A stretch of 43,117 nucleotides of DNA from an uncultured Pseudomonadota bacterium (GCA_964549515.1 CAZJVC010000001.1:10011-53127); one strand, 5' to 3'. Numbered from the stretch's first letter, positions 1-43,117 are shown. The notes: generated by a model from the letters alone, not told the origin. Program-made: numbers and translations.

Positions 1-294
1 GCCATGCCCGTTCATCCTGCCATGCCCGTTCATCCTGCCATGCCCGTTCATCCTGAGCGGGAGTCGAAGGATACCCGTCAGATAAATCTAAAAAAGTTCC
101 TCGCACTTGATCTTCCACTACAAAAACGAGTTTTACTCGAATATCTCTACGAAGCTCACGTATCATTCACTATCAGTTCCGGCCTTATTGATGAAATCAT
201 TCGCTTCCTAAATAATAAAAAAAGTACCACGCATCATATCGACACGTGGTACATAATCAAAAAACAAGGAAGTTTTTTAATTAGACCAACCTGA
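1..294 (+). CDS. 3' part of an unknown CDS that continues upstream of the window. Its N-terminal visible part is encoded by the 3 x 18-bp tandem repeat (MPVHPA x3).
   Basis: The frame is open from base 1. The only Met codons lie inside the tandem repeat, so the real start is probably upstream. The C-terminal 60 aa are non-repetitive. Confidence 0.35.
   Translation, partial: AMPVHPAMPVHPAMPVHPERESKDTRQINLKKFLALDLPLQKRVLLEYLYEAHVSFTISSGLIDEIIRFLNNKKSTTHHIDTWYIIKKQGSFLIRPT
2..55. repeat. Three tandem copies of an 18-bp unit, ccatgcccgttcatcctg. The array is cut by the window edge and belongs to the GC-rich tcatcctgcc repeat family.
   Basis: Three perfect 18-bp copies can be read directly. The gttcatcctgcc core recurs at 37066-37080, 37150-37160 and 37196-37206. 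Confidence 0.9.
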
Positions 295-718: not shown

Positions 719-1798
719 ATGATAGCAGAGATACGATCCAGCCGAAAATTACAGCTCGTTCTTGCGTGCATTATTTTTTCACTGTTCCTGCACGTCGTTA
801 TGGTATATTTCAATATCGTTTTTAATAAAGTTCAGGATTATCCTGCGCCTGAACTAAAAAAAATACCTCCACGAATACAAACCAAACAAAAACCAATGAC
901 CATGATGAAACAGCCACCGCAACCTACACGACGCATTCATCGTGCTGGTACAAGCAAGCAAGCACCAAAAACAGAAAAGGCTTTGGCACCACAAAAACCA
1001 AAGCAAGCGCTCCCTCTCCCTTCCGCTGCACAACCAACACCACAACCTCCTCAACAAAAACCTCCTGAGCCCAAACAAGAACCAAAACAGGCACCGCCTA
1101 AACAGGTCTCACCTGAACAGGTCTCACCTAAACAGGTCTCACCTGAACGAATCAAGCCCAAACAGACCCAACAGGCCCATCCTAAACAAAGAATAAAAAA
1201 GACAACACAAAAAAAAGAACCTAAACCGCCGCGACAAAAACCAGTCTCTGGACGACCAGCTATGAAAAAGTTCTTTGAAGATTCTCTCAAAGAAGAACAA
1301 ACCTCGTCTGAGCGAGCTACACAAACCGATGATGAAAGAAAAACGCTAAGCTTCCTTTCACCAAACAACTTATATCATTCAATGCGCGAGCGAGCACTTA
1401 CGCAACCACAGCCAGGCATTGCGGAACAGTATGGCGACATGAAATATCTACATTACAATCAAAAAATATATCAAGCATTGCAACAGGCTATGAATATTGT
1501 CGTACGCAATCTACCTCGAGCACAGTATCAATCAGCCCTTGAATCTATTCAACACCCCGCTCGCATACGATTTGCAGTTGATAAAAATGGAAAACTAAAA
1601 GGACTTAGCCTTGTAACATCATCGGGCAATCCATATTATGATATGATTGCACAACAAGTAATCCGCGAAGCATCCTATCCACCAATACCAAAGTCCTTTA
1701 ACATGAATACGACGTATCATACATACGGCATAATACTGTATAATGATGGCAGTCCACAAAACAATCTCGGCGTCTCACCATACCTTGAAGGAGAATAA
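719..1798 (+). CDS. TonB-family energy transducer with an N-terminal TM anchor, a Pro/Lys-rich linker and a TonB C-terminal domain.
   Basis: There is a TM helix (LQLVLACIIFSLFLHVVMVYF), a long P/K/Q-rich low-complexity spacer, and a C-terminus (ARIRFAVDKNGKLKGLSLVTSSGNPYYDMIAQQVIREASYPPIP) that matches the TonB_C pattern. It contains an in-frame 15-bp x3 repeat at 1097-1148. Confidence 0.7.
   Translation: MIAEIRSSRKLQLVLACIIFSLFLHVVMVYFNIVFNKVQDYPAPELKKIPPRIQTKQKPMTMMKQPPQPTRRIHRAGTSKQAPKTEKALAPQKPKQALPLPSAAQPTPQPPQQKPPEPKQEPKQAPPKQVSPEQVSPKQVSPERIKPKQTQQAHPKQRIKKTTQKKEPKPPRQKPVSGRPAMKKFFEDSLKEEQTSSERATQTDDERKTLSFLSPNNLYHSMRERALTQPQPGIAEQYGDMKYLHYNQKIYQALQQAMNIVVRNLPRAQYQSALESIQHPARIRFAVDKNGKLKGLSLVTSSGNPYYDMIAQQVIREASYPPIPKSFNMNTTYHTYGIILYNDGSPQNNLGVSPYLEGE
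1097..1148. repeat. Three tandem copies of a 15-bp aacaggtctcacctg unit of the CAGG/CCTG family, lying in frame inside the TonB-like CDS and encoding VSPEQVSPKQVSPE.
   Basis: The tandem copies can be read directly and are the same unit as the intergenic array at 7210-7299. Confidence 0.9.
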
Positions 1799-1807
1799 TA
1801 AAACAAC

Positions 1808-3241
1808 ATGGCACACATTACTATTTTAGGCGCAGGATTAACTGGCCTTTCAACAGCATATCATCTTGAACAAATTGGTTTTTTTGATTACGAAATTTTT
1901 GAAAAAGAAAAAACAGTCGGCGGCCTATGCCGTTCGGTAGAAAAAGATGGATTCACATTTGATTATACCGGACATCTACTTCATATAAATAAAGCACCAC
2001 TTTTAGACGATTACATGTACACATTTATAAAAAAAGTTGCCGGATTTGATACATTCAATCAGCTCAATCGCAAAGCCCGCATCTACTCAGGCGGGACCCG
2101 TTCAGGTGGGACCTGTTCAGGCGAGGGCTGTTCAGGTGGGACCTGTTCAGGTGGTGTTTTAACACATTATCCATTTCAAACAAATCTGTACGGACTTCCC
2201 TCTGATATCATTGTAGAATGCATAAAGGAATATGTTACAAGAAAAAAAACAGCACACCCACGTTCATTTTACAGCTGGGTATGCACACATTTTGGCAAAG
2301 GATTTGGAAAACACTTCTTCTTTCCCTATCAAGAAAAGATTTTTTGTTACGATGTAAAAAAACTTATGTCATCATGGACTGGTCGCTTCGTGCCACAAAC
2401 ATCACTTGAAGAAATGATTGAAGGTGCACTTAAACCGAAAGATGAAAACATTGGCTATAATGCATCTTTCTATTATCCAAAATATGGTGGAATTCAAACC
2501 CTTATTAACAAGTTACAAAATCAACTTATACAACCAATACAAAGCGAATACGAAGTTACAGAACTTGACCTTGCTAAGAAAGTTATCACATTCAAAAATG
2601 GACACAAAAAGCCGTACAACATTCTTATTAATACAATTCCACTTGACACGCTACTACAAAGTATAAACGATAAAAGCACAACATCATTCAATAAAGCGAG
2701 TGGCAAACTAGAAACAACATCTGTACTTAATGTTAACTTCGGCATTAACAAACAAAATATCTCTGATAATCACTGGATATATGTACCAGAAAAATCCTAC
2801 CCTTTTTATCGCATAGGGTTTCCACACCACTTCGCCAACTACAACGCGCCAAAGAATTGCAGCTCTGTATATACCGAGTGTGCTTATATCGGACAAAAAC
2901 CAAAAAATTTAGAAAAACAGGTCATCCAAAAATCTAAAAATTTCTTAAATATCAATGATCATGAAATCATAACAACAACTACGTTAAACCTTACCCACGC
3001 GTACGTTATCTACAATAGTTGGCGCGAAAAACAATTACCACTGCTACTTGCAAGATTACAAAAAAACGGTATATACTCAATTGGTCGGTATGGTGCATGG
3101 AAATATGCAAGTATGCAGGAATCGATTTTAGATGGAAAAACAATCATCGATACATTATTCAGGCACAACCAAACCATAAAAGAAGTAATGATAGAAAATG
3201 ATGCGGTTAAATATAATAATTCTATGGTTAACAGTAAGTAA
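1808..3241 (+). CDS. FAD/NAD(P)-binding oxidoreductase with an amine-oxidase or Glf-like Rossmann N-terminus.
   Basis: The N-terminus ITILGAGLTGLSTAYHL is a GxGxxG dinucleotide-binding motif. The ORF is 477 aa and carries an in-frame repeat insertion at 2088-2150 that encodes SGGTRSGGTCSGEGCSGGTCSGG. Confidence 0.8.
   Translation: MAHITILGAGLTGLSTAYHLEQIGFFDYEIFEKEKTVGGLCRSVEKDGFTFDYTGHLLHINKAPLLDDYMYTFIKKVAGFDTFNQLNRKARIYSGGTRSGGTCSGEGCSGGTCSGGVLTHYPFQTNLYGLPSDIIVECIKEYVTRKKTAHPRSFYSWVCTHFGKGFGKHFFFPYQEKIFCYDVKKLMSSWTGRFVPQTSLEEMIEGALKPKDENIGYNASFYYPKYGGIQTLINKLQNQLIQPIQSEYEVTELDLAKKVITFKNGHKKPYNILINTIPLDTLLQSINDKSTTSFNKASGKLETTSVLNVNFGINKQNISDNHWIYVPEKSYPFYRIGFPHHFANYNAPKNCSSVYTECAYIGQKPKNLEKQVIQKSKNFLNINDHEIITTTTLNLTHAYVIYNSWREKQLPLLLARLQKNGIYSIGRYGAWKYASMQESILDGKTIIDTLFRHNQTIKEVMIENDAVKYNNSMVNSK
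2088..2150. repeat. Four tandem copies of a 15-bp unit, caggtgggacctgtt (the reverse complement of aacaggtcccacctg), in frame within the oxidoreductase CDS.
   Basis: The copies can be read directly and are the reverse complement of the 7210-7299 array unit. Confidence 0.9.
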
Positions 3242-5818: not shown

Positions 5819-5878
5819 CTAACATTTTATTAAAACATCTATGATGGTTTATTGTTAATACTAATGGAGGTATTTCTT

Positions 5879-6703
5879 ATGAATAAGAAAGTAACAATTA
5901 CTTTACTCTCAGCATTTCTTTGTGCTGGTTCAATTACAAACGGCATGGAAAGTGCTTTAGTTCCTGTTGCAAAAGTTGCAACAAAAAGCATAGCTTCTGT
6001 TGTAGGGCAAATCGCTCAACATAAAGATGCTATTACAGTTGGCGGTACTTTAGGAACAGGAGCTGTTCTTGCTACAAAAAGTATCCTAAAACAAAAGGCT
6101 ACTGAAAAAGCTGCTAAAATTGCCGCTGAAAAAGCTGCTAAAATTGCCGCTAACGGTTTTGTTAAAAAAACAGCTAAAAGTGCTTTAGAAGCTGTAAAAA
6201 ATGTAAACCCTTACATCGGTTGTGTCGTTGGCGCTACTCTTGTTGGTGACGCTGTTTATCAAGGTTGGGGACGCTGGAGAAAAGAAGAAGCTAAACCAGA
6301 AGTAAAACCTGAAGAAGTAAAGCGTAGCCGCTTAGGTTCAGTTGGTCATTACCTTGGCTCAGCTGCAAAAGGTACCTATAATTGGGTATCACCATCAAAT
6401 TGGTTCTACTACTTAGCTGGTAAAACGTGCAGAGGAACTGTAGCTGGTACAAAAAAAGGTTACTCAGTTATAAAATCTACTCCTAGTGCAATAGTCGCTG
6501 GTACAAAAGCAACTTGCACAACAATAAGAAAGAAAGTTGTCGGCAGAACTGTTGATGAACTAAAAGAAGACATCGCAACAGCTGAAAGCCAAATAAGTGA
6601 GTACGCAAAAAGAATCATCGAAGCTGAACGAAGAACTGCTGCTGCAAAAGCAACGCAAGTTAAACTTCAAGCAACTATTGATGCTTCTAAAAAACAGAAA
6701 TAA
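5879..6703 (+). CDS. Secreted alanine/lysine-rich protein with a C-terminal coiled coil.
   Basis: A GGAGG ribosome-binding site at 5866-5870 precedes the ATG at 5879. The signal peptide is MNKKVTITLLSAFLCAGSITNG. There is a tandem 27-bp repeat encoding (EKAAKIAA)x2. Confidence 0.6.
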   Translation: MNKKVTITLLSAFLCAGSITNGMESALVPVAKVATKSIASVVGQIAQHKDAITVGGTLGTGAVLATKSILKQKATEKAAKIAAEKAAKIAANGFVKKTAKSALEAVKNVNPYIGCVVGATLVGDAVYQGWGRWRKEEAKPEVKPEEVKRSRLGSVGHYLGSAAKGTYNWVSPSNWFYYLAGKTCRGTVAGTKKGYSVIKSTPSAIVAGTKATCTTIRKKVVGRTVDELKEDIATAESQISEYAKRIIEAERRTAAAKATQVKLQATIDASKKQK

Positions 6704-6866: not shown

Positions 6867-7211
6867 ATGAGTAAAAAAGTAACAGCCCTAGCTATTGCAC
6901 TGCTTCTAAGCACATCAATTTGCGCAGATACTGGCGCAGGAATTGCGGCAGCTAAAACTGTCACGGATGGCATCAAAAACCCCGCCGACAATATTGATCC
7001 AAAAATTGCCCAAAATACCTGGTCTTCATTCAGAAAGCTTGGCAAAGATATAAGTACTGGCGCTATAAAAGGCTTTAAAACAACCAGAGAATTCAGCAAA
7101 GAACACAGAAATGAGATACTTATTGCAGCAGGAACTATTGCAGCTGCATATGTTAGTTACCGTCTTATTAAGTGGGCAGTCGCTAAAAAAAAGCAAAGCA
7201 AGAATAAATAA
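6867..7211 (+). CDS. Small exported or membrane protein with a signal peptide and a C-terminal TM helix.
   Basis: The start MSKKVTALAIALLLSTSICA resembles the N-terminus of the upstream gene (MNKKVTITLLSA). There is a C-terminal hydrophobic segment and a K-rich tail. The stop codon abuts the repeat array. Confidence 0.5.
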   Translation: MSKKVTALAIALLLSTSICADTGAGIAAAKTVTDGIKNPADNIDPKIAQNTWSSFRKLGKDISTGAIKGFKTTREFSKEHRNEILIAAGTIAAAYVSYRLIKWAVAKKKQSKNK

Positions 7212-7299
7212 CAGGTCCCACCTGAACAGGTCCCACCTGAACAGGTCCCACCTGAACAGGTCTCACCTGAACAGGTCTCACCTGAACAGGCCCCACCTG
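7210..7299. repeat. Intergenic tandem array of six copies of a 15-bp unit, aacaggtcccacctg, of the CAGG/CCTG family.
   Basis: The copies can be read directly. Units 4-5 carry a c-to-t variant and unit 6 a t-to-c variant. Confidence 0.95.
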
Positions 7300-7328
7300 A
7301 AAACGAGTAATCGTTAAAAAATTAACCG

Positions 7329-7365
7329 GGCCTGGAGCGACTTTTGTAGCTCCAGGCCTCTTTTC
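7329..7365. terminator. Bidirectional rho-independent terminator between the convergent 6867-7211 gene and sbcC.
   Basis: The stem gcctggagc/gctccaggc encloses a 10-nt loop and is flanked by T-rich tracts on both strands. Confidence 0.6.
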
Positions 7366-7370
7366 TATTC

Positions 7371-9710
7371 TTATCCCTGCTCAATCACGCGCACCAAACT
7401 GCCAAGCGCCGTTTTTTCAATAAAGAAATGAACCGGAAACTGATCCTTCATCGTAGATAAATGTGAAACAACAATAATCTTCGCAAAATCATCCTGAATC
7501 TTATACAAAGCATCCATGATAAGGGAAAGCCCATCTTCATCTTGTGAACCAAACCCCTCATCAATGATCAACGTTTGCAATGATGCCCCCGCACGACGTG
7601 CTAAAAGCTTCGAGATTGCAATGCGCAGTGCAAAGTCGATGCGAAACGCCTCTCCACCAGAAAAAAGCTCATACGGGCGAATTCCTGCGTTATCTGATAT
7701 TTTAATATCAAGCGTCTCTCGTGTGCCGCCTTTTTTTAAATCACGTACAGATTCAATCATAATTTGAGCATTCTGATCACTTAGCTGTGCAAGAAGCTTA
7801 TTAGCCTCTTCCTCTATCTCCGGAATGACCGACTCAATAAGTAATGCTTGAATACCATCCTTACCTAACGCCTCGCTGATTACTTTATATTCTGCAATTT
7901 CACTCTCAAGGGACTTTTTTGTCACTTCGTACTTTTTTCGTTCTATAGATAACTTTTGGATACGAAGCTGCTCATGCTCCAAGCGCGTTTTTTGCTGCAA
8001 TAACTGATTTCCTTTTTCAGTATGTTGAAGCATAAGTTGCTGAATCTCTATCTCGCGCTCTTTAAACTCTGTCTCTTTTTGATCAAATGAAACGTTCTTT
8101 TTGAATTGCGCTAAGTCTTGTTCGGCAATCTGTCGTTGCGTTAACAATTTTTTATATTGTATATCCTGCTCAAGCTCATTTTGTTGCTTGTTTTTCAATT
8201 CTTGCAATTTTTGCTGCACAACATACGCCTGTTCTTTTAATCTTTTTTTTGTCTCTTCAGATTGGGTCAAAACTTTAACATGCTTTTCAAACTCTGTGTG
8301 TATGATAAAAGAACGCACAGAAATATCTTTATACTGAGATTCAACAGTAATAATATGCTGCACTTCTTTTTCCAGCTCTTTTATGCGGCCATGCTCAAGC
8401 ATCAACAAATCTTTAGATTCCTGAACAAATAACTTAATACGCCTAAGACGATGCTGATAAAAAGATACTTTTTTTTTCAATGTATATTTAAGTTGTTCTC
8501 TGGTTTTACCAGAAAGTGACTGCTCACATAATGGACATACACTATCTTTGCATGAACTCGCTTGCTTCTCATGATCAAGCACAATACGCAATTCACGATC
8601 AACTAAATTACCATTCCCAATCATACGTTGATACACATCTTTGCGTCTTTCAAAAAGTTCTCGCGCTGCAACATGCGACTTTGTTATTTGATCTTTTCTT
8701 GCAAGCTCTTTTTCATAATTCGTTAAAACCTTACGAATACTCTTAAATTCATCATCTAATGTTTTTTTCTGTTTCTCGATATATGAATGCCGTTCTTCTG
8801 CTGCCTGACATTGTGAAAGTAATCTTGCCCCCAAAACCTCTTGCTCTTTATGTACCTGTGTACATTTTAACTCATAGGCATGATTATACACTTGAAGCTT
8901 TTCACCATTTTGAGCACACACACGCTCTAACAAATAAATTTTCTCTTTGTGTGAATATAACTCATCACGGTCCTTTTGCACTTCTTTTTGTTTAACGACT
9001 AATGCAGCAGCCTCTTCTTTAAGAACCACCTCTTCATGCTCCAAGCTCCCTAACGTTTCTTCTAATGTTTTGAGCTCATCAACCTCTTCATTCAATAGCT
9101 CAAGCAATTGCTTAAGGCCATCACGCTTGCTGGCGCGCTCTCGTATTTTTTCTAGCACCACTTTACGAATGCGCTCATAATAATCTAATCCTAAAATCAG
9201 CGCTAAAATCTCTTTTCTTTCTCGCGCTGATTTTTTAGAAAACTCATTTGCTTGCCCCTGACGTAAAAATACAGAATTCGCAAAAGTCTCGAAATTAAGC
9301 CCTACAATCTCTTCAATTTTTTGTTGCGTTGCGCGAATTGTCTTCTCTGTTAGCGGCTTAAGTTTTTTTTCACTTTGATCATACAGACCAAATTCCAGCG
9401 TAGATCGTGCTTTTGAGCCACATAAAACAAGCTCCCGGTAAACACTGTATCGTTCGCCTTGGCACAAAAAATCAAATTGAACCGACATTTTATCATTGCC
9501 AAGCCGAATAAGAGCTTCATCAGCACGCGAAACACCACTTACCTTGCGCGCATGCCCCCATACTGACCACGTTATTGCATCAAGAAGTGCTGATTTCCCG
9601 TGCCCATTTTTTCCAGATAGGCACATAAGCGTATACGGTTCAAAATTTATCAACTGTTCTGTGTCGCCATAACTTAAAAAATTTCGTATCTTGAGTTGAA
9701 TTGGAATCAT
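7371..9710 (-). CDS. sbcC: SbcC-family DNA repair exonuclease ATPase subunit of the SMC/Rad50 type (779 aa).
   Basis: The N-terminus has a Walker A motif (LSGKNGHGKSALLDAITWSVWG), followed by a long coiled coil. There is a central CPLC zinc hook, and the C-terminus has a Walker B/D-loop (LIIDEGFGSQDEDG). Confidence 0.85.
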   Translation of the reverse strand: MIPIQLKIRNFLSYGDTEQLINFEPYTLMCLSGKNGHGKSALLDAITWSVWGHARKVSGVSRADEALIRLGNDKMSVQFDFLCQGERYSVYRELVLCGSKARSTLEFGLYDQSEKKLKPLTEKTIRATQQKIEEIVGLNFETFANSVFLRQGQANEFSKKSARERKEILALILGLDYYERIRKVVLEKIRERASKRDGLKQLLELLNEEVDELKTLEETLGSLEHEEVVLKEEAAALVVKQKEVQKDRDELYSHKEKIYLLERVCAQNGEKLQVYNHAYELKCTQVHKEQEVLGARLLSQCQAAEERHSYIEKQKKTLDDEFKSIRKVLTNYEKELARKDQITKSHVAARELFERRKDVYQRMIGNGNLVDRELRIVLDHEKQASSCKDSVCPLCEQSLSGKTREQLKYTLKKKVSFYQHRLRRIKLFVQESKDLLMLEHGRIKELEKEVQHIITVESQYKDISVRSFIIHTEFEKHVKVLTQSEETKKRLKEQAYVVQQKLQELKNKQQNELEQDIQYKKLLTQRQIAEQDLAQFKKNVSFDQKETEFKEREIEIQQLMLQHTEKGNQLLQQKTRLEHEQLRIQKLSIERKKYEVTKKSLESEIAEYKVISEALGKDGIQALLIESVIPEIEEEANKLLAQLSDQNAQIMIESVRDLKKGGTRETLDIKISDNAGIRPYELFSGGEAFRIDFALRIAISKLLARRAGASLQTLIIDEGFGSQDEDGLSLIMDALYKIQDDFAKIIVVSHLSTMKDQFPVHFFIEKTALGSLVRVIEQG

Positions 9711-12018: not shown

Positions 12019-13080
12019 ATGATCAATATAGCATTGAATGGATTTGGTAGGATTGGAAGAAACTTTTTACGATCACTAATCACCGACAAAACCGCTCAAA
12101 AAACACTCAATTTAGTCGCCCTTAATATCGGGCCAGCAAATCTCAATGATCTTGTCTATTCGGTTAAATATGATTCGCTAATGGGAACATTTGACGGAAA
12201 TGTTTCATATAGCAATGACATACTAACTATCAATAATCTTGAAATCAAAGTTTTAACTGAATGTAATCCAGAAAATCTTCCATGGAAAGATCTTCAAATC
12301 GACTGGGTTGTGGAGGCAACCGGACGCTTCACCAATCGACCTGACGCAAAAAAACATTTAGAGGCAGGCGCCAAAAAAGTTCTTATTTCGGCACCAGCGA
12401 CAGATGAAGATTGCTCAATCGTTCCTGGGGTTAATGATGAAGTATATAAAAATAGTGACACTATCATTTCACTTGGAAGTTGTACAACCAACGCACTTGC
12501 ACCAACATTATATGTCATCAACAACGAATTTGGAATTGAAAGTGGAGCACTCACAACAATCCATTCATACACCAACTCACAAGTATTACTCGATGTCGAT
12601 GATACAAAAACCCGCCTCACACGAGCAGCTGCAATCAACATGATTCCATCTTCAACTGGTGCCACCAAGGTAATCGGCAAAGTAATACCTGAGTTAAAAG
12701 GAAAAATCATCGGAAATTCCGTTCGTATTCCGATACCAAAAATTTCATTAATTGATGTTGTCGTTAAACTAAAAAAAGAAGCTTCAAAAGAAGCTATCAA
12801 TAAAGCCTTTGAACAAGCAAAACAAAATTATCCTGTTCAGGATAATCCTGAACAGGATAATCCTGAACAGGATAATCCTGAAAAAAATCGCCTAAAAGGT
12901 ATCTTAGATATTACGTATGAGCCGTTGGTATCAATAGATTATTATGGAAACCCGCACTCTGTCATTATTGATGCCCAGCTAACCGAAACACACGGCAACT
13001 TGGCAAAAATATTTGGCTGGTATGACAATGAATGGGCATACAGCGTGCGCATGAAAGAGTTTCTAATTAAGCACAGATAA
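12019..13080 (+). CDS. gap: Glyceraldehyde-3-phosphate dehydrogenase with an in-frame repeat insertion near its C-terminus.
   Basis: It has the NGFGRIGR Rossmann motif, the SCTTN catalytic Cys region and a WYDNEWAYS C-terminus. A QDNPEQDNPEQDNPE insertion is encoded at 12832-12882. Confidence 0.9.
   Translation: MINIALNGFGRIGRNFLRSLITDKTAQKTLNLVALNIGPANLNDLVYSVKYDSLMGTFDGNVSYSNDILTINNLEIKVLTECNPENLPWKDLQIDWVVEATGRFTNRPDAKKHLEAGAKKVLISAPATDEDCSIVPGVNDEVYKNSDTIISLGSCTTNALAPTLYVINNEFGIESGALTTIHSYTNSQVLLDVDDTKTRLTRAAAINMIPSSTGATKVIGKVIPELKGKIIGNSVRIPIPKISLIDVVVKLKKEASKEAINKAFEQAKQNYPVQDNPEQDNPEQDNPEKNRLKGILDITYEPLVSIDYYGNPHSVIIDAQLTETHGNLAKIFGWYDNEWAYSVRMKEFLIKHR
12832..12882. repeat. Three tandem copies of caggataatcctgaa of the CAGG/CCTG palindromic family, lying in frame within gap.
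   Basis: The sequence cctgttcagg(ataatcctgaacagg)x2ataatcctgaa can be read directly. Each CAGG-ATAAT-CCTG is a hairpin-capable palindrome. Confidence 0.9.
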
Positions 13081-13136: not shown

Positions 13137-13212
13137 GGGCCCATAGCTCAGTGGTTAGAGCAGTCGGCTCATAACCGAAAGGTCCCAGGTTCAAATCCTG
13201 GTGGGCCCACCA
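13137..13212 (+). tRNA. tRNA with anticodon CAU (Met; the lysidine-Ile alternative cannot be excluded), with an encoded CCA end.
   Basis: The acceptor stem is gggccca/tgggccc, the D-arm is tagctcagtggttagagc, the anticodon loop is ctCATaa, the T-arm is ggttcaaatcc, and a 3' CCA follows a discriminator A. The gene is 76 nt. Confidence 0.85.
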
Positions 13213-35217: not shown

Positions 35218-35489
35218 AGCTCTAAAAACCTTATAGTTTTAGTGATACTTATATTAATATTTTCTTAATTAAAATCAGGATTATCCTAAAATAGAATCCT
35301 AAAATACGCTATTGATGTGCTCATTGAACAAAAACAGCGAGCATTTCTTATTAATTCTACTCTTTTTCTTAAATTTTTCAAGTGGAATAAACAAATCATT
35401 CCTGACTTTAAAGGAATTGCATAAAAAAACAAAACTGTTAGTCTCATTACAAATTATATTTTACCATTAAATTCAAGGGAGCGTCTATA

Positions 35490-36605: not shown

Positions 36606-36642
36606 GCTAAGACTGTTCAGGATTATCCTGAACAGTCTTAGC
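36606..36642. repeat. Perfect 16-bp-arm palindrome built around a CAGG-ATTAT-CCTG module, lying immediately 3' of rseP.
   Basis: The sequence is gctaagactgttcagg attat cctgaacagtcttagc. It is probably a stem-loop that acts as a transcript-end or stabiliser element for rseP, but no T-run follows it. Confidence 0.8.
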
Positions 36643-36654
36643 ATAAACAGATCC

Positions 36655-36689
36655 AAAAAAAGACCGGCATATTCTTTGATATGCCGGTC
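36655..36689 (-). terminator. Rho-independent terminator serving the minus strand.
   Basis: On the minus strand an 11-bp stem (gaccggcatat/atatgccggtc) is followed by T7. It lies downstream of the flavoprotein remnant. Confidence 0.6.
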
Positions 36690-36844
36690 GAGTAGTAATT
36701 TTACCATATCTAATTATCTATAATCCGAAGATGATAAATAACTAAAACGCTAACCACCACTACTCAATAATCAGTATACAGAAATTTACAAATAGAAAAC
36801 AAGCTTTTGTACAAAAAAGTTTAAACTTTTTTCAATCCAAGCAT

Positions 36845-39036: not shown

Positions 39037-39456
39037 TTAAATCCCTAAAGTCGTTAGCTTAAATTCTGAAGAATATTTTGTATCAGTTATCCCGTCCCCG
39101 GGTTTCTGTGACACAAATTGAGCCATCTTCATTGAAAGATCGTCTTTCGTTATCGACTTATACACTCTTTCTACCATGATGCCATCTTTAATAAAAATCA
39201 GAGCTGGAACACGAACTTTAAAACCGCGCCTGACGCCCCATCTTTCAGCAATTTTATATTCCCGATCAACATTAAGTATAGCAAATTTGACTTCTTGATT
39301 TCGCTTTTTGATATATTCTTCCTCGATCCTCTCCAAAATCCCTTTCATTTTACGACATGATTTACTCCAGCTAGCCTCAGCTAGAACAACAATCGGAATC
39401 TCCGTAGCAATTTCTTGCTTAAGGTTCCTACTTGTTAATCCAACAAACATAACCAT
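39037..39456 (-). CDS. Thioredoxin-fold protein with a degenerate active site (WSKSC, i.e. SxxC), a monothiol type.
   Basis: The pattern ...VVLAEASWSKSCRKM...VPALIFIKDG... matches the thioredoxin fold, but the first Cys is replaced by Ser. Confidence 0.55.
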   Translation of the reverse strand: MVMFVGLTSRNLKQEIATEIPIVVLAEASWSKSCRKMKGILERIEEEYIKKRNQEVKFAILNVDREYKIAERWGVRRGFKVRVPALIFIKDGIMVERVYKSITKDDLSMKMAQFVSQKPGDGITDTKYSSEFKLTTLGI

Positions 39457-39486
39457 CTCCTTTACATAGAAAAAATAAACGAATAT

Positions 39487-40116
39487 CTACTTTGGGATTC
39501 TTAACGCCAGTATCTGGTTCTGAAATTTCTGGCTAAATTTAGAACCACAAACTTCAACTGGCAAACGTATTTCTTCACTTTGTTCATGGCCTTTTGAATC
39601 CTTAAACACAATACTTACTCTTTTCTCTTGCGCATAAACTTTAATATTTTCTTCTCGCACACCTAGAAGTTCCATGATTATTACCATTTCATGATCTTCA
39701 TCAAAAATATCTATAGGCAGCGCCTTTTTTTTCAATGTCTCAATTGATTGTTTCCACTTCTCAGGATTTCGCACTGCGATAAAAAGCCGCTTGAGGATAA
39801 TCCTGTTGTGCAAATTATTAGTCCAATTATTAGTCCAAAAAAGATTAAGTTGAGGCACCTTCTTACCAAAAATCCATTTTCTTTTTACTATCTCCATCGC
39901 CTGAATATCGCGCAGAAAAAATGCAAATTTAACTTTTTTCACTTGCACAAAAAGAAGCCTCTTATTGGTAAGATACAAAAGACCAGGCCTCCAGACAGAA
40001 AAGAGTGAACCTACATCGTAAGAAGCAGTATAATAAAATATAACCCTCTCCCCTCTCATCAAAGGGAACGGGATTGGTCTTTCTATAAGATCTAATGTAT
40101 ATTTCCTATATCTCAT
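39487..40116 (-). CDS. Two-domain protein with an N-terminal bacterial PH-like (bPH_2-type) domain and a C-terminal truncated alpha-crystallin/Hsp20-like domain (GvpH-like).
   Basis: The N-terminal region has RPGLLYLTNKRLLFVQ (G.L.LTN.RL.F). The C-terminal region, LGVREENIKVYAQEKRVSIVFKD...IRLPVEVCGSKFSQKFQNQILALRIPK, matches the ACD pattern (LPGV..EDI.V......L.I...LP....F...F.NG.L.I..PK). It is paralogous to 40106-40648. Confidence 0.5.
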   Translation of the reverse strand: MRYRKYTLDLIERPIPFPLMRGERVIFYYTASYDVGSLFSVWRPGLLYLTNKRLLFVQVKKVKFAFFLRDIQAMEIVKRKWIFGKKVPQLNLFWTNNWTNNLHNRIILKRLFIAVRNPEKWKQSIETLKKKALPIDIFDEDHEMVIIMELLGVREENIKVYAQEKRVSIVFKDSKGHEQSEEIRLPVEVCGSKFSQKFQNQILALRIPK

Positions 40117-40648
40117 TTTTTGGTATCTTTATTGTAAGCATTTGATTTTGAAACTTCCGACTAAATTCTGAAGTGCAAACCCGTCTAGGCAAATTTATTT
40201 CTTCACCTTGCTCAATGCCTTCTCTATCTTTAAATAAAATATTTAGCGTTTTCTCTTGAACGTCAATCTTGATATCTTCTTCTTGCACACCTGGAAGCCC
40301 TACAATTATTACTGTCTCTTTGGCTTCCTCAAAAACATCTACCAGTAATCCTACAGATATCTTTGCTTCTTCACTTCTTTTTTCGGTTAACCACCAACTA
40401 AACAAAACTTTTTCGCCAGTTTGAACATCAATATGCAACTTTTCAAATACTAGTATCGGCTTTCTTAGAATTTTTAAGGCTCGCGCGTTTATAACATCCT
40501 TAATTCTCATCAAGCTATTCATATCGCTGGATTCACCAAAAATCTCTGTTAGCTCATCAAGCCTTGCATGCCTATGTTCCAGGAGATGTGAAATTGCATT
40601 ACGGCTCCTTAAATCTAATTCATTGAGAAGTCGCTCAAGGTTGGCCAT
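40106..40648 (-). CDS. Hsp20/alpha-crystallin-like (GvpH-like) protein with an N-terminal helical domain of unknown function.
   Basis: The C-terminus, IIVGLPGVQEEDIKIDVQEKTLNILFKD...INLPRRVCTSEFSRKFQNQMLTIKIPK, has the ACD pattern and is paralogous to the preceding gene. Confidence 0.5.
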   Translation of the reverse strand: MANLERLLNELDLRSRNAISHLLEHRHARLDELTEIFGESSDMNSLMRIKDVINARALKILRKPILVFEKLHIDVQTGEKVLFSWWLTEKRSEEAKISVGLLVDVFEEAKETVIIVGLPGVQEEDIKIDVQEKTLNILFKDREGIEQGEEINLPRRVCTSEFSRKFQNQMLTIKIPKNEI

Positions 40649-40947
40649 TATACTAACTCAGGAGAAATTTTTTTCTTCCGATGCTCTGTTTCCCAAGCCC
40701 TGGTTTCCTCATCCCAAGCCTGCATTACCCCATATTTAAGCATAGTCTCCATCCCAGCCAATGCTGCACGCAAGTTAATACCAATTAAAGGAACTCCGGC
40801 AACCGAGATAATAATATCAGCATTAATTACCAAGCCCTTATCTAAAGCCCGATCTAATAAGTCTACCAAGGTTGCTTGTGTGGTTCTCTCAAATTCACCA
40901 TCGAGCGGCTCTGTGACAACAGATTTCATTTTTACACCTTTATACAA
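40648..40947 (-). CDS. Gas vesicle structural protein family member (GvpA/J/M-like).
   Basis: LVDLLDRALDKGLVINADIIISVAGVPLIGINLRAALAGMETMLKYG matches the GvpA-family core (L.D..DR.LDKG.V...D...S..G.EL..I..R...AS.ET...Y). An alternative start lies at 40929. Confidence 0.75.
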   Translation of the reverse strand: MYKGVKMKSVVTEPLDGEFERTTQATLVDLLDRALDKGLVINADIIISVAGVPLIGINLRAALAGMETMLKYGVMQAWDEETRAWETEHRKKKISPELV

Positions 40948-41710
40948 AACTATACGGCGCCCAAGGGCCAGTAAAACGAACAGAAAACTCTTCTAAATGG
41001 TCAATTTTTATGAGCTCTCTGCTCAATATCTTAATATTCTCTTTAGGAAGCAAGCAAGAAAAATTTAGCAACATCTGCTTATCAACCACAGGCTTTTTTG
41101 TTCTTTCAACTTTAATTTCATCTACACATTTTTTAATTCTGTCATAAAAATCTTTGAAACAGCTCGTTGCTTTCTCTTCTATTTTCTTTCGCAAAAGTTT
41201 CTCAAGTTTTTGCTTATACATATAAGCTAAGCCGCGAGATTTAGACTTTATCTCTTCATTTAACTTATTAATCTCAGAATCATTTTCTATCAAGCGCTCC
41301 CCAACCAACTTAGGAAACCAAAAAATCTGAATGCCATACTCAGCTTTGCCTTTAACTTTAGTCAATTTCTGTTTCAAATTTTCATAATCATCATGTATCC
41401 AGCGCTTCAAATTTTCCTTAGCTTCAATCCCTTCTTCACCTTTAATTATTGTACTAAAACCTAAAGGTAAAATTGTGCCAAATCTTTGCCAGGCGGCATC
41501 GATAGTTTTTTGATGAGCTATTATCCACTTTGTTACTATCTTGTCATTTTCAGATTTATAGAAAGTTATGGGAGAATCATGAACTATAGCACATAGGTCT
41601 TGATAAGCAATAGTATAAACTTTATTTTCATCAACCCCCATATTGCCAAAATTTATTTTTTCATTTCCTTCCGCTAGACAGTAAAGATATAAGCCATTTG
41701 CCATTTTCAA
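40940..41710 (-). CDS. Gas vesicle protein of the GvpF/GvpL family.
   Basis: The N-terminus GLYLYCLAEG...VYTIAYQDLCAIVHD and the C-terminus FTGPWAPYSFV are both characteristic of GvpF/L. It is translationally coupled to its neighbours by 4-8 nt overlaps. Confidence 0.8.
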   Translation of the reverse strand: MKMANGLYLYCLAEGNEKINFGNMGVDENKVYTIAYQDLCAIVHDSPITFYKSENDKIVTKWIIAHQKTIDAAWQRFGTILPLGFSTIIKGEEGIEAKENLKRWIHDDYENLKQKLTKVKGKAEYGIQIFWFPKLVGERLIENDSEINKLNEEIKSKSRGLAYMYKQKLEKLLRKKIEEKATSCFKDFYDRIKKCVDEIKVERTKKPVVDKQMLLNFSCLLPKENIKILSRELIKIDHLEEFSVRFTGPWAPYSFV

Positions 41711-42030
41711 ATTTCCTTTTGCTTAGCTTTTCTTTCCCGTTCAGTAGGATTTATCATTTTATTTAAGACATCATCCACAATACTATCAAGCCCATCTCTT
41801 ACCGATTTGACCGACTCAGTAACACCTTGCTCTTTTTTTATCTCCTCAACAGCCAAATCTAAATCCATAAGAGCTTCACCCAACCTGTCTATCTCCTCTT
41901 CAGTTAGATTTCCACTTTCCATCCGCTTCATTGCTTGAATATTAAGTGTCTCTTTAATAATTTCTACCAAGGATATAACAAGGCCCAAGACGCCGTGTTT
42001 CAGATTCTTTTCGTCAATATCTATAGGCAT
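41707..42030 (-). CDS. Gas vesicle protein GvpK.
   Basis: GVLGLVISLVEIIKETLNIQAMKRMESGNLTEEEIDRLGEALMDLDLAVEEIK matches the GvpK consensus (LVLTLVELLRQL.E.QAIRR.E.G.LT.EE.ERLG..LM.LE). Confidence 0.75.
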   Translation of the reverse strand: MPIDIDEKNLKHGVLGLVISLVEIIKETLNIQAMKRMESGNLTEEEIDRLGEALMDLDLAVEEIKKEQGVTESVKSVRDGLDSIVDDVLNKMINPTERERKAKQKEI

Positions 42031-42041
42031 TGCTAGCTCTC

Positions 42042-42491
42042 TTAGATTTTAAGATTTGTTATCTTAAACCCTGTATATTCTTGCCCTACAGAACCTTTAT
42101 CAATTGAAAGATCTTCCTCTCTTTCAGCTGACAGTTTTCGAGCAGGTACAACACGCACCGGATCCTCGTAAACGTTTCTAAAAATATCCGCTTTGTTTAT
42201 CTCATCCCTTATCTGCTGCATCACTTTTGTTTTGGCTTTCTGATTAAGCGCCTTGAATCTGCACGTATTTAGTTTTAAATTTCGTTTTGCCACTTTCTGC
42301 GTTTCTCTCTCGGCAAATTCACGCAGTTCTTCTTTATCTCTTTCATTCAGAATTGGGCCGCCAAATAGCTTCTGAAGGCCACTTTCCAGCTCCGTCGCCG
42401 ACGATACAACAAGGCCCATTGGGCTCTTACGTTTTCTTACAACATCCAAACCACTTCTTAGATCATTAACTGTACTAAATTTTTTCTTCAT
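42042..42491 (-). CDS. Hypothetical protein within the gvp-like operon. It could be an accessory Gvp such as GvpG or GvpO, but this is unresolved.
   Basis: It sits between the GvpA-like and GvpK genes on the same strand with short spacers. It is charged with a helical E/K/R-rich centre, and there is no confident motif match. Confidence 0.4.
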   Translation of the reverse strand: MKKKFSTVNDLRSGLDVVRKRKSPMGLVVSSATELESGLQKLFGGPILNERDKEELREFAERETQKVAKRNLKLNTCRFKALNQKAKTKVMQQIRDEINKADIFRNVYEDPVRVVPARKLSAEREEDLSIDKGSVGQEYTGFKITNLKI

Positions 42492-42510
42492 ACTCGTTCT
42501 CTAGGTTATC

Positions 42511-42864
42511 CTAAATTACCTGTTTTTGCTCTATTTTTACCTTAGCACTTTGCCAGCCACACCATTTACAACCTTCATTTAGCAGCTCGTCAACCACCGC
42601 CCTTTTACCACATTGGGGGCATTCCTCTTTATTTTTTGTTGCCTCCTTCCATGCATCAGTTTGTGTATTAACACTCGATGGAAATTCTAACCCATACCGC
42701 GCCGCTGTTTCAAAAGAAGCAAGAGCCGCCCTAATTTTAATTCCCAAAAGCTCGACTCCGGCAACGGACACCGTGATATCAGCATTGATTACCAATCCCT
42801 TATCTAGAACTCTATCGATAAGGTCAGCCAAACCACCCGCCTCTTTCTTCTCGTCTAATTCCAT
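42511..42864 (-). CDS. GvpA/GvpJ-family gas vesicle structural protein with a C-terminal Cys4 extension that looks like a zinc ribbon.
   Basis: LADLIDRVLDKGLVINADITVSVAGVELLGIKIRAALASFETAARYG aligns almost position for position with the GvpA core. The extra C-terminal roughly 55 aa contain CPQC...CKWC. Confidence 0.8.
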   Translation of the reverse strand: MELDEKKEAGGLADLIDRVLDKGLVINADITVSVAGVELLGIKIRAALASFETAARYGLEFPSSVNTQTDAWKEATKNKEECPQCGKRAVVDELLNEGCKWCGWQSAKVKIEQKQVI

Positions 42865-43117
42865 GTTTCCTCAAATCTCTCGTGCCAAATTTTAACGAAC
42901 CAATGAATCTCATACTACAAAGATTCTTGGTCCATAACTCCTATCTGAGAAAAGTATATATCAAATTCCATCATTTGGAAACGCTTCTAGCTTGATTCAA
43001 TAGCTGCACGTCCTCACAAGTTTTCCAGTTTTTTATCCTTGCTCTTTTTCTTCGCTAAAAAGTAAATATTAGTGCAGTATCCGTATTCTGTTAAATCCAA
43101 GTACACCATTGCAATTC

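Follow-up and report, generated by a model that had tools for sequence, protein, structure and literature searches.

The gap gene of an uncultured bacterium, which encodes glyceraldehyde-3-phosphate dehydrogenase (GAPDH), carries an in-frame insert that contains exact 15-bp tandem units, and the number of these units differs between closely related strains. The insert is probably a slippage-prone, hairpin-forming, lineage-specific coding minisatellite, tolerated in a permissive loop of the enzyme as passenger DNA. Related units occur elsewhere in the window, by which we mean the whole 43,117-nucleotide stretch of DNA that was analyzed, with positions counted from its first letter. The gene and the components of its insert are as follows.

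12019..13080, plus strand: gap, encoding type I glyceraldehyde-3-phosphate dehydrogenase, an intact open reading frame (ORF) of 353 aa
12823..12882, plus strand: in-frame 60-bp insert encoding QNYPVQDNPEQDNPEQDNPE, residues 269-288 (Q269-E288), 20 residues
12838..12882, plus strand: three exact tandem units of CAGGATAATCCTGAA (QDNPE three times); two units in the alternative allele
12827..12861, unstranded: 35-bp perfect palindrome (inverted repeat I4) with 17-nt arms, 100% complementary, and a 1-nt loop

The gap product matches Gp_dh_N (1.1e-28) and Gp_dh_C (2.6e-47) in Pfam, and both GAPDH domains are therefore present. A search of 5.8 billion proteins returned 8000 homologues, the named ones being GAPDHs of Candidatus Dependentiae/Babeliales; judged from these names, the host is an uncultured Dependentiae (TM6/Babeliales-like) species. 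The closest solved relatives found in a PDB search were bacterial and chloroplast GAPDHs, with E values down to 5.6e-90. An AlphaFold2 (AF2) model of the monomer, built from the alignment, had a mean pLDDT of 85 and a pTM of 0.83 and superimposed on solved GAPDHs with TM scores of 0.87 to 0.91. The Pfam domains, the PDB matches, and the model fold thus agree with the assignment made in an earlier note on this DNA. The catalytic residues C155 (in the SCTTN motif) and H182 are invariant in a 22-sequence alignment (A1), and for this reason the gene looks functional.

The earlier note had described an in-frame insert of exact tandem 15-bp palindromic units in this gene. The insert proved to be real, with exact copies of CAGGATAATCCTGAA at 12838-12852, 12853-12867, and 12868-12882; its length, given as approximately 16 residues, was revised to 20 (Q269-E288) by alignment with 20 Dependentiae orthologues. 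TRF called the array at 12830-12882 with a period of 15, 3.5 copies, and 94% matches. Every unit contains a 13-bp perfect palindrome, CAGGAT-A-ATCCTG. Immediately 5′ of the three direct units lies one inverted or degenerate unit, ATTATCCTGTTCAGG, and the insert accordingly reads QNYPV followed by three QDNPE pentapeptides. Because the inverted unit abuts the direct ones, the junction forms the 35-bp perfect palindrome, whose arms are exceeded in length by just three inverted repeats in the window, two of them perfect hairpins. Folded as single-stranded DNA, this region reached −20.8 kcal/mol, compared to −3.7 ± 1.6 for shuffled sequences (z = −10.6). On the minus strand, the palindrome and an adjacent T-run score as terminator-like (a 20-pair stem and a T-rich tail), which is a consensus match only. 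An Rfam scan over the window gave a tRNA-Met (13137-13209) as its sole match at the gathering threshold and none in or near the array, and the reading of the array as a described structured RNA was rejected on this result.

The insert is absent from 20/20 Dependentiae orthologues in the 22-sequence alignment. One homologue (P0001; 348 aa, 98% identity to the window GAPDH) carries the same insert minus one QDNPE; the next best homologues are at most 66% identical and 331 to 340 aa long. No relative in the comparison set falls between 66% and 98% identity, and no recent empty site is found among the relatives compared. The segment from KAFEQA to DITY, measured in a MAFFT alignment, spans 15 to 20 residues in 118/120 of the best homologues, 34 in P0001, and 39 in the window protein; orthologues therefore lack a comparable insert. 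The longer homologues in the 22-sequence alignment owe their extra length to N-terminal extensions, elsewhere than the insert site. The claim that orthologues lack the insert was thus borne out in the 20 aligned orthologues and in 118/120 of the best homologues, and a comparable acidic insert is not universal among them.

The AF2 model places the insert between a catalytic-domain helix (residues 257-268) and a strand (296-299). Residues 271-286 have a pLDDT below 50 and are predicted to be disordered, and the rest of the modeled fold is intact. The S-loop equivalent lies at approximately 184-207 in the model, and the insert starts approximately 65 residues further on; a HMMER alignment to the Bacillus stearothermophilus enzyme (1gd1) breaks after chain residue ∼264. 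The sequence neighborhood given previously (...AAxxGxLKGILGY...) was right, but its assignment to the S-loop/helix junction was not, since residues 269-288 lie well beyond the S-loop of the model (∼184-207; ∼178-201 in B. stearothermophilus). The GAPDH of Aquifex aeolicus (PDB 2ep7), solved and folded, is longer by 7 residues at exactly this helix-to-strand loop, although its extension is nonrepetitive, whereas the window insert comprises 20 residues derived from repeat DNA. In the GAPDH fold, the catalytic domain carries this loop on its outer side. From the monomer model and the known fold of the enzyme, we infer that the insert would be exposed to solvent in the oligomer.

Units related to those in gap occur in the window as tandem arrays and as single cores, in genes and between them.

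831..847, unstranded: single core TTCAGGATTATCCTG in the TonB-like ORF (VQDYP), a 16-nt match to the GAPDH insert
1097..1148, plus strand: family array CCT[A/G]AACAGGTCTCA, 3.5 units, in the proline-rich linker of TonB-like ORF 719..1798 (PKQVSPEQVSPKQVSP); reads PKQVSPEQVSP
2087..2154, minus strand: family array TCAGGTGGGACCTGT, 4.5 units, in reverse orientation inside FAD-dependent oxidoreductase ORF 1808..3241; read SGGT[CR]
7210..7301, plus strand: six units of AACAGGTC[C/T]CACCTG directly after the TAA stop of ORF 6867..7211
35274..35290, unstranded: degenerate single core ATCAGGATTATCCTAAA, intergenic
36606..36642, unstranded: 37-bp perfect palindrome (inverted repeat I2), intergenic, after the M50 peptidase gene; single core at 36616
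39791..39805, unstranded: degenerate single core TTGAGGATAATCCTG inside ORF 39487..40116 (minus strand)

The pattern CAGG-N5-CCTG has 15 matches at 6 loci in the window against 0.16 expected, the CAGGATAATCCTGAA 15-mer with up to 2 mismatches has 10 matches against 0.11, and the AT-type core AGGATWATCCT has 7 matches at 5 loci against 0.01. With observed counts so far above expectation, chance is excluded. Units of the type CCTG-AA-CAGG plus five variable bases form variable arrays at three sites besides gap, within 13 kb. The claim that the repeat family also occurs in other genes thus held for the TonB-like and FAD oxidoreductase ORFs. The TonB-like array sits among degenerate similar repeats in the linker and is part of a 27-aa block that is absent from the syntenic orthologue at the locus L135. 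The FAD oxidoreductase array accounts for 19 to 20 extra residues absent from 15 orthologues, and one allele (L124/P0121), 96% identical, is 30 bp shorter, or exactly two units fewer. The array at 7210-7301 lies upstream of a terminator-like hairpin (∼7328-7360) and is in frame with the preceding ORF, from which it is separated by a stop codon kept in every recovered locus covering the site. An interpretation of this array as the truncated tail of ORF 6867..7211 was not supported, given that stop and the different, nonrepetitive tail of the orthologue at the locus L133.

Exact strings of 23 to 29 nt are common to different loci. The TonB-like array and the intergenic array at 7210-7301 have 29 nt in common; the FAD oxidoreductase array matches the latter over 27 nt as its reverse complement; and the palindrome at 36606-36642 (−19.3 kcal/mol, z = −9.9) has at its center 23 nt, CTGTTCAGGATWATCCTGAACAG, that match the core of the GAPDH insert exactly. 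In its reverse orientation, the FAD oxidoreductase array encodes SGGTC instead of PEQVP. Most frames through the units are open (5/6 for the CAGGATAATCCTGAA GAPDH unit, 5/6 for the TCCCA unit, and 4/6 for the TCTCA unit). The identity at third codon positions, the different peptide encoded by the reverse-oriented array, and the presence of an untranslated array together show that the unit of inheritance is the DNA and not a selected peptide. The 17-bp palindrome was also considered as a transcription-factor operator; this candidate was rejected because copies are found within ORFs and downstream of genes and show no consistent association with promoters.

GAPDH loci of the same organism were recovered from assemblies of different samples in JGI, ENA, and Logan. 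The exact three-unit protein was found on 10 contigs and the two-unit protein on 4, the two-unit allele at the loci L001 to L004 and the three-unit allele at L005 to L010 and in the window. Flank-anchored extraction yielded two alleles, one of 61 bp (seven sequences) and one of 46 bp (four sequences), which differ by exactly one unit. Over long alignments, the strains are approximately 99.6 to 99.99% identical in DNA sequence, and those with the two-unit allele approximately 99.6 to 99.75%; one of the latter (L001) has 99.75% identity to the window in an alignment of 13.3 kb that contains 18 mismatches and a single gap. Outside the array, the two-unit and three-unit GAPDHs differ by one amino acid. 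The FAD oxidoreductase array occurs in alleles of 2.5 and 4.5 units (51 versus 81 bp), and the array at 7210-7301 has 4, 6, or 7 units across assemblies, one of the differing assemblies showing only 7 mismatches to the window over 21 kb. The copy-number polymorphism that the earlier note predicted is therefore present, as two versus three units across assemblies.

Beyond the window, loci of three relatives (L133, L134, and L135) carry neither CAGG-N5-CCTG nor AGGATWATCCT in their syntenic regions; gene order is the same, and L133 and L135 overlap on one contig. A rightward extension by 9 kb (L136) contained no further family members, and viral contigs gave no matches to either array type. A protein search with translations of the five open frames of the unit yielded no candidate, a result that probably reflects a lack of repeat words in the index. 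The 19-mer GTTCAGGATWATCCTGAAC matched 24 loci in metagenome contigs, of which L107 alone is from this organism, the others being chance matches; most of the samples that contain this genome are evidently missing from the collection, and the count is not genome-wide. In genome contigs, CCTGAACAGGNNNNNCCTGAACAGG matched at least 89 stretches in many unrelated phyla, which represent PEQxx pentapeptide repeats of a generic kind and a motif recurrent in Clostridia, and the matches listed include no Dependentiae; by this distribution, the linker motif CCTGAACAGGNNNNNCCTGAACAGG is not specific. A full-text literature search returned no title or abstract describing palindromic or tandem repeats of this kind in Dependentiae.

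The GAPDH array has the defining features of a coding VNTR. Coding minisatellites resemble it in that their units are arranged head to tail, have lengths that are multiples of three, and change in number by whole units; the GAPDH array is arranged in this way with a period of 15 and 3.5 copies, and close genomes differ by whole units in the GAPDH, FAD oxidoreductase, and intergenic arrays. Ordinary coding VNTRs, however, are usually confined to one gene, typically one for a surface protein, whereas the present unit departs from this pattern: it is a palindrome, it is found at several loci in both orientations, and one of its host genes encodes a core glycolytic enzyme. Repetitive extragenic elements offer a further comparison. 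REPs are ∼20 to 40 bp long, essentially intergenic, and linked to RAYT transposases, and MITEs have terminal inverted repeats and clear target-site duplications. REP/BIME (REPIN) sequences and MITEs are, like the window family, short, dispersed, and hairpin forming, and the AT-type core also occurs as terminator-like intergenic hairpins. They differ in that the window copies lie mostly in genes, no transposase accompanies them in ∼52 kb, and the putative target-site duplication is ambiguous, since the direct repeat at the flanks of the insert is A-rich and of low complexity and could be microhomology. The insert itself is palindromic along its whole length.

Rickettsia palindromic elements (RPE) are interspersed single copies of 100 to 150 bp that occur in intergenic regions and in frame inside conserved genes, have proliferated in a lineage-specific manner, and form inserts missing from orthologues (PMC1779305). 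In effect, RPE are the closest known system, which the window insert resembles at approximately a tenth of the size. Both are palindromic, are found between genes as well as in frame within conserved genes of a host-associated bacterium, and add a peptide that is tolerated; the window family has in-frame copies absent from orthologues in the GAPDH, FAD oxidoreductase, and TonB-like genes as well as intergenic copies at 7210-7301 and 36606-36642. It does not form interspersed repeats of 100 to 150 bp, the unit being 15 bp, the insert 60 bp, and the longest palindrome 35 to 37 bp. RPE are long single copies, whereas the window units are tandem, vary between strains, and belong to another phylum; the two are likened by their features, and sequence relatedness is not expected. 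PARCEL are tandem intragenic repeats with DNA dyad symmetry, variable number, and evidence of within-genome shuffling; each encodes an amphipathic domain of 25 residues, and the ORFs that contain them have no known function and are often membrane targeted (PMC2996958). The window arrays are alike in being tandem, intragenic, dyad symmetric, and variable in repeat number, but their repeat is 5 residues long (QDNPE), predicted to be disordered, and inside enzymes, not a 25-residue amphipathic domain. Overall, the in-frame, polymorphic repeat insert drawn from this family is a real curiosity of a broadly known kind and a possible miniature analogue of RPE.

Under the minisatellite interpretation, a seed would have been inserted into gap first and expanded thereafter, an order that we infer. 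The number of units could then change by replication slippage or hairpin-assisted misalignment. Because 15 bp amount to five codons, any copy number keeps the frame; the array could survive in an essential gene because the frame is kept, the units hold no stop in the frames read, and the loop tolerates changes in length. The insert is assumed to be passenger DNA, most probably neutral or slightly deleterious, and not an adaptation. Plain slippage fails to account for the identical units at separate loci or for the inverted unit in gap. Candidate routes by which units might reach new loci are template switching between hairpins, ectopic conversion, and a dedicated enzyme. The TonB-like gene may be the native source of the GC-type unit, because its array is embedded in degenerate similar repeats.

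A different account would make the units a mobile, ultra-short palindromic element like RPE, REPs, or MITEs, moved by a hairpin-recognizing enzyme (e.g., a RAYT/IS200-type Y1 transposase) or by self-priming hairpins and amplified by slippage afterward. We consider this account doubtful, although several observations agree with it. Separate loci have identical strings of 23 to 29 nt, in either orientation and in genic as well as intergenic DNA; the GAPDH insert and the intergenic hairpin have a common 23-nt core and different outer arms, and both are perfect palindromes; the family is lineage specific; and the inverted first unit of the GAPDH array suggests an insertion event. An 8-bp A-rich direct repeat, AACAAAAT/AAAAAAAT (7/8 identity, low complexity), borders the insert at a site where relatives show just one AAAAAAAAT or AAAAAA stretch, and could be a target-site duplication, but a repeat of such low complexity is equally consistent with microhomology. 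No transposase, including RAYT (Y1), was seen in the ∼52 kb of genome examined, and viral contigs carry neither array. Three of the four arrays are clustered within 6.2 kb, a spacing that suggests local template switching and not transposition, and the setting of the TonB-like array amid degenerate similar repeats is that of a native proline-rich repeat rather than an insertion. Similarly unlikely in our judgment is the proposal that the CCTG-AA-CAGG-N5 15-bp units constitute, in Dependentiae, a hitherto undescribed class of mobile DNA that is ultra-short and forms hairpins, is copied between loci in either orientation, and enters essential genes in frame before amplification by slippage. When the earlier note spoke of a repeat family invading the gene, the whole-unit expansion and contraction and the identical units at several loci stood up to analysis, but the active mobility implied by that word was not supported.

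Adaptation offers another explanation, in which the insert would be an acidic, proline-containing, length-variable surface loop, selected for a role of GAPDH in moonlighting, in interactions, or in the environment. In other systems, exposed loops of varying length can have a function, the frame is kept in 14/14 contigs on record, and the two alleles are otherwise strongly conserved, with a single amino-acid difference. This explanation is nonetheless quite improbable, because the same units also occur untranslated and in reverse frame within other genes, so that the sequence is not tied to the GAPDH peptide; moreover, no orthologue has a comparable loop, the segment is predicted to be disordered, and the identity of the units extends to synonymous positions, a sign of recent amplification at the DNA level. 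We give still less credence to the idea that there is no family at all and that the arrays arose from independent local duplications, their likeness stemming from P-E-Q-type pentapeptide coding (CCT GAA CAG G..). The occurrence of CCTGAACAGG-N5-CCTGAACAGG, encoding PEQxx repeats, in many unrelated phyla (at least 89 stretches) does mean that the CAGG...CCTG frame follows partly from the codons. Whole 15-mers are, however, identical between loci, including the five variable bases and the third codon positions, with exact matches of 27 to 29 nt; one array, being the reverse complement, specifies another peptide, the AT-type core occurs at five loci against an expectation of 0.01, and the relatives lack any copies. 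As for the tandem copies being an assembly artifact or the product of chimeric contigs, short tandem repeats are prone to misassembly, and many of this organism's contigs are broken at the 18-bp array at window positions 1-55. An artifact of this kind is, however, scarcely credible for gap, where the three-unit protein is found on 10 contigs and the two-unit protein on 4, the independent JGI, ENA, and Logan assemblies agree, the flanks are identical across assemblies, and the array, at 45 to 60 bp, is shorter than a sequencing read.

As a coding minisatellite, the gap insert illustrates that a highly conserved enzyme can carry a length-variable passenger segment of 10 to 20 residues in natural populations, and it pinpoints a permissive loop in GAPDH after a catalytic-domain helix. 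It also extends selfish palindromic DNA in coding genes, known from Rickettsia, to another host-associated phylum and a much smaller unit. If the units were mobile, the movement of such short palindromes would be mechanistically interesting, and they would represent a miniature, independently evolved counterpart of RPE, with hairpin-based transfer acting on elements of only 15 to 37 bp.

With at least four loci that vary within 13 kb, the arrays are ready strain markers for this uncultured organism. Other tandem repeats of the same genome vary as well. An 18-bp unit at window positions 1-55 is present in 2, at least 3, and at least 5 copies, in frame, and a protein with a 24-bp repeat occurs as a 303-aa variant compared to 279 aa. 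These variable in-frame repeats point to a genome that is generally prone to slippage.

The right-hand part of the window carries part of a complete gas-vesicle gene cluster, which continues into L136, a contig locus of the same genome that extends the window rightward. This cluster and the other elements considered here are as follows.

1-55: 18-bp in-frame tandem repeat GCCATGCCCGTTCATCCT (AMPVHP), extending beyond the window start
1991-2005: 5-residue (15-bp) insertion KAPLL in ORF 1808..3241, a second insertion in the oxidoreductase
6102-6151: perfect 24-bp in-frame repeat, 2.1 copies, in ORF 5852..6703
7371-9710, minus strand: SbcC-like ATPase gene (AAA_23, SbcC_Walker_B)
36656-36831, second copy at L136 1-177: non-coding segment of about 180 bp
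39813-39838: perfect 12-bp tandem repeat AATTATTAGTCC, 2.2 copies, in ORF 39487..40116
About 39400-43117, minus strand, then L136 1-9680: gas-vesicle gene cluster

The gas-vesicle cluster comprises several GvpA-type (PF00741) genes, GvpK, three GvpL/F genes, GvpG, and GvpO, together with a GvpN-like AAA_5 protein, a CDC48-like AAA ATPase, and HSP20. The cluster shares its contigs with the ribosomal-protein operon of this Dependentiae-like genome, as seen in at least three independent assemblies. Members of the phylum Dependentiae are regarded as intracellular symbionts, and the presence of a gas-vesicle cluster in such a phylum is unexpected; a full-text literature search found no paper mentioning "Dependentiae" and "gas vesicle" together.

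The KAPLL insertion in the oxidoreductase is extra relative to 15/15 orthologues, and its sequence has no obvious relation to the palindromic repeat family. The 18-bp array was reached by two of the eight contigs examined, one of which ends within it, and the remaining contigs start downstream; its copy number in other assemblies is either 2 or at least 5. The product of ORF 5852..6703 is 303 aa in one assembly (L127) versus 279 aa, which suggests extra copies of the 24-bp unit, and orthologues in relatives carry other repeats, of 15 to 48 bp, within the same gene. A degenerate core of the palindromic family, at 39791-39805, is 8 bp away from the 12-bp repeat, within the same ORF.

The SbcC-like ATPase gene is directly adjoined by the 6-unit palindromic array. 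Because SbcCD cleaves DNA hairpins, the presence of this gene may bear on the palindrome length that is achievable in this genome.

The genome contig scan also returned a recurrent, highly conserved motif (...CCTGAACAGGCGGAACCTGAACAGGAAAATCCCGCACAATTAAATACTAAT...) in Clostridia genomes (L018, L026, L028, L043, and many others among the matches listed). It appears to belong to a widespread mobile-element gene that has pentapeptide repeats of the NPxQ type, and it bears no relation to the window.

The non-coding segment has a terminator hairpin of classical type (GACCGGCATAT...ATATGCCGGTC) at its start, and its two copies are 88% identical and about 15 kb apart. The copy in L136 lies at the contig end, adjoining a DUF433 gene, and the region of the window from 36.6 to 37.6 kb contains only short ORFs and may include gene remnants.
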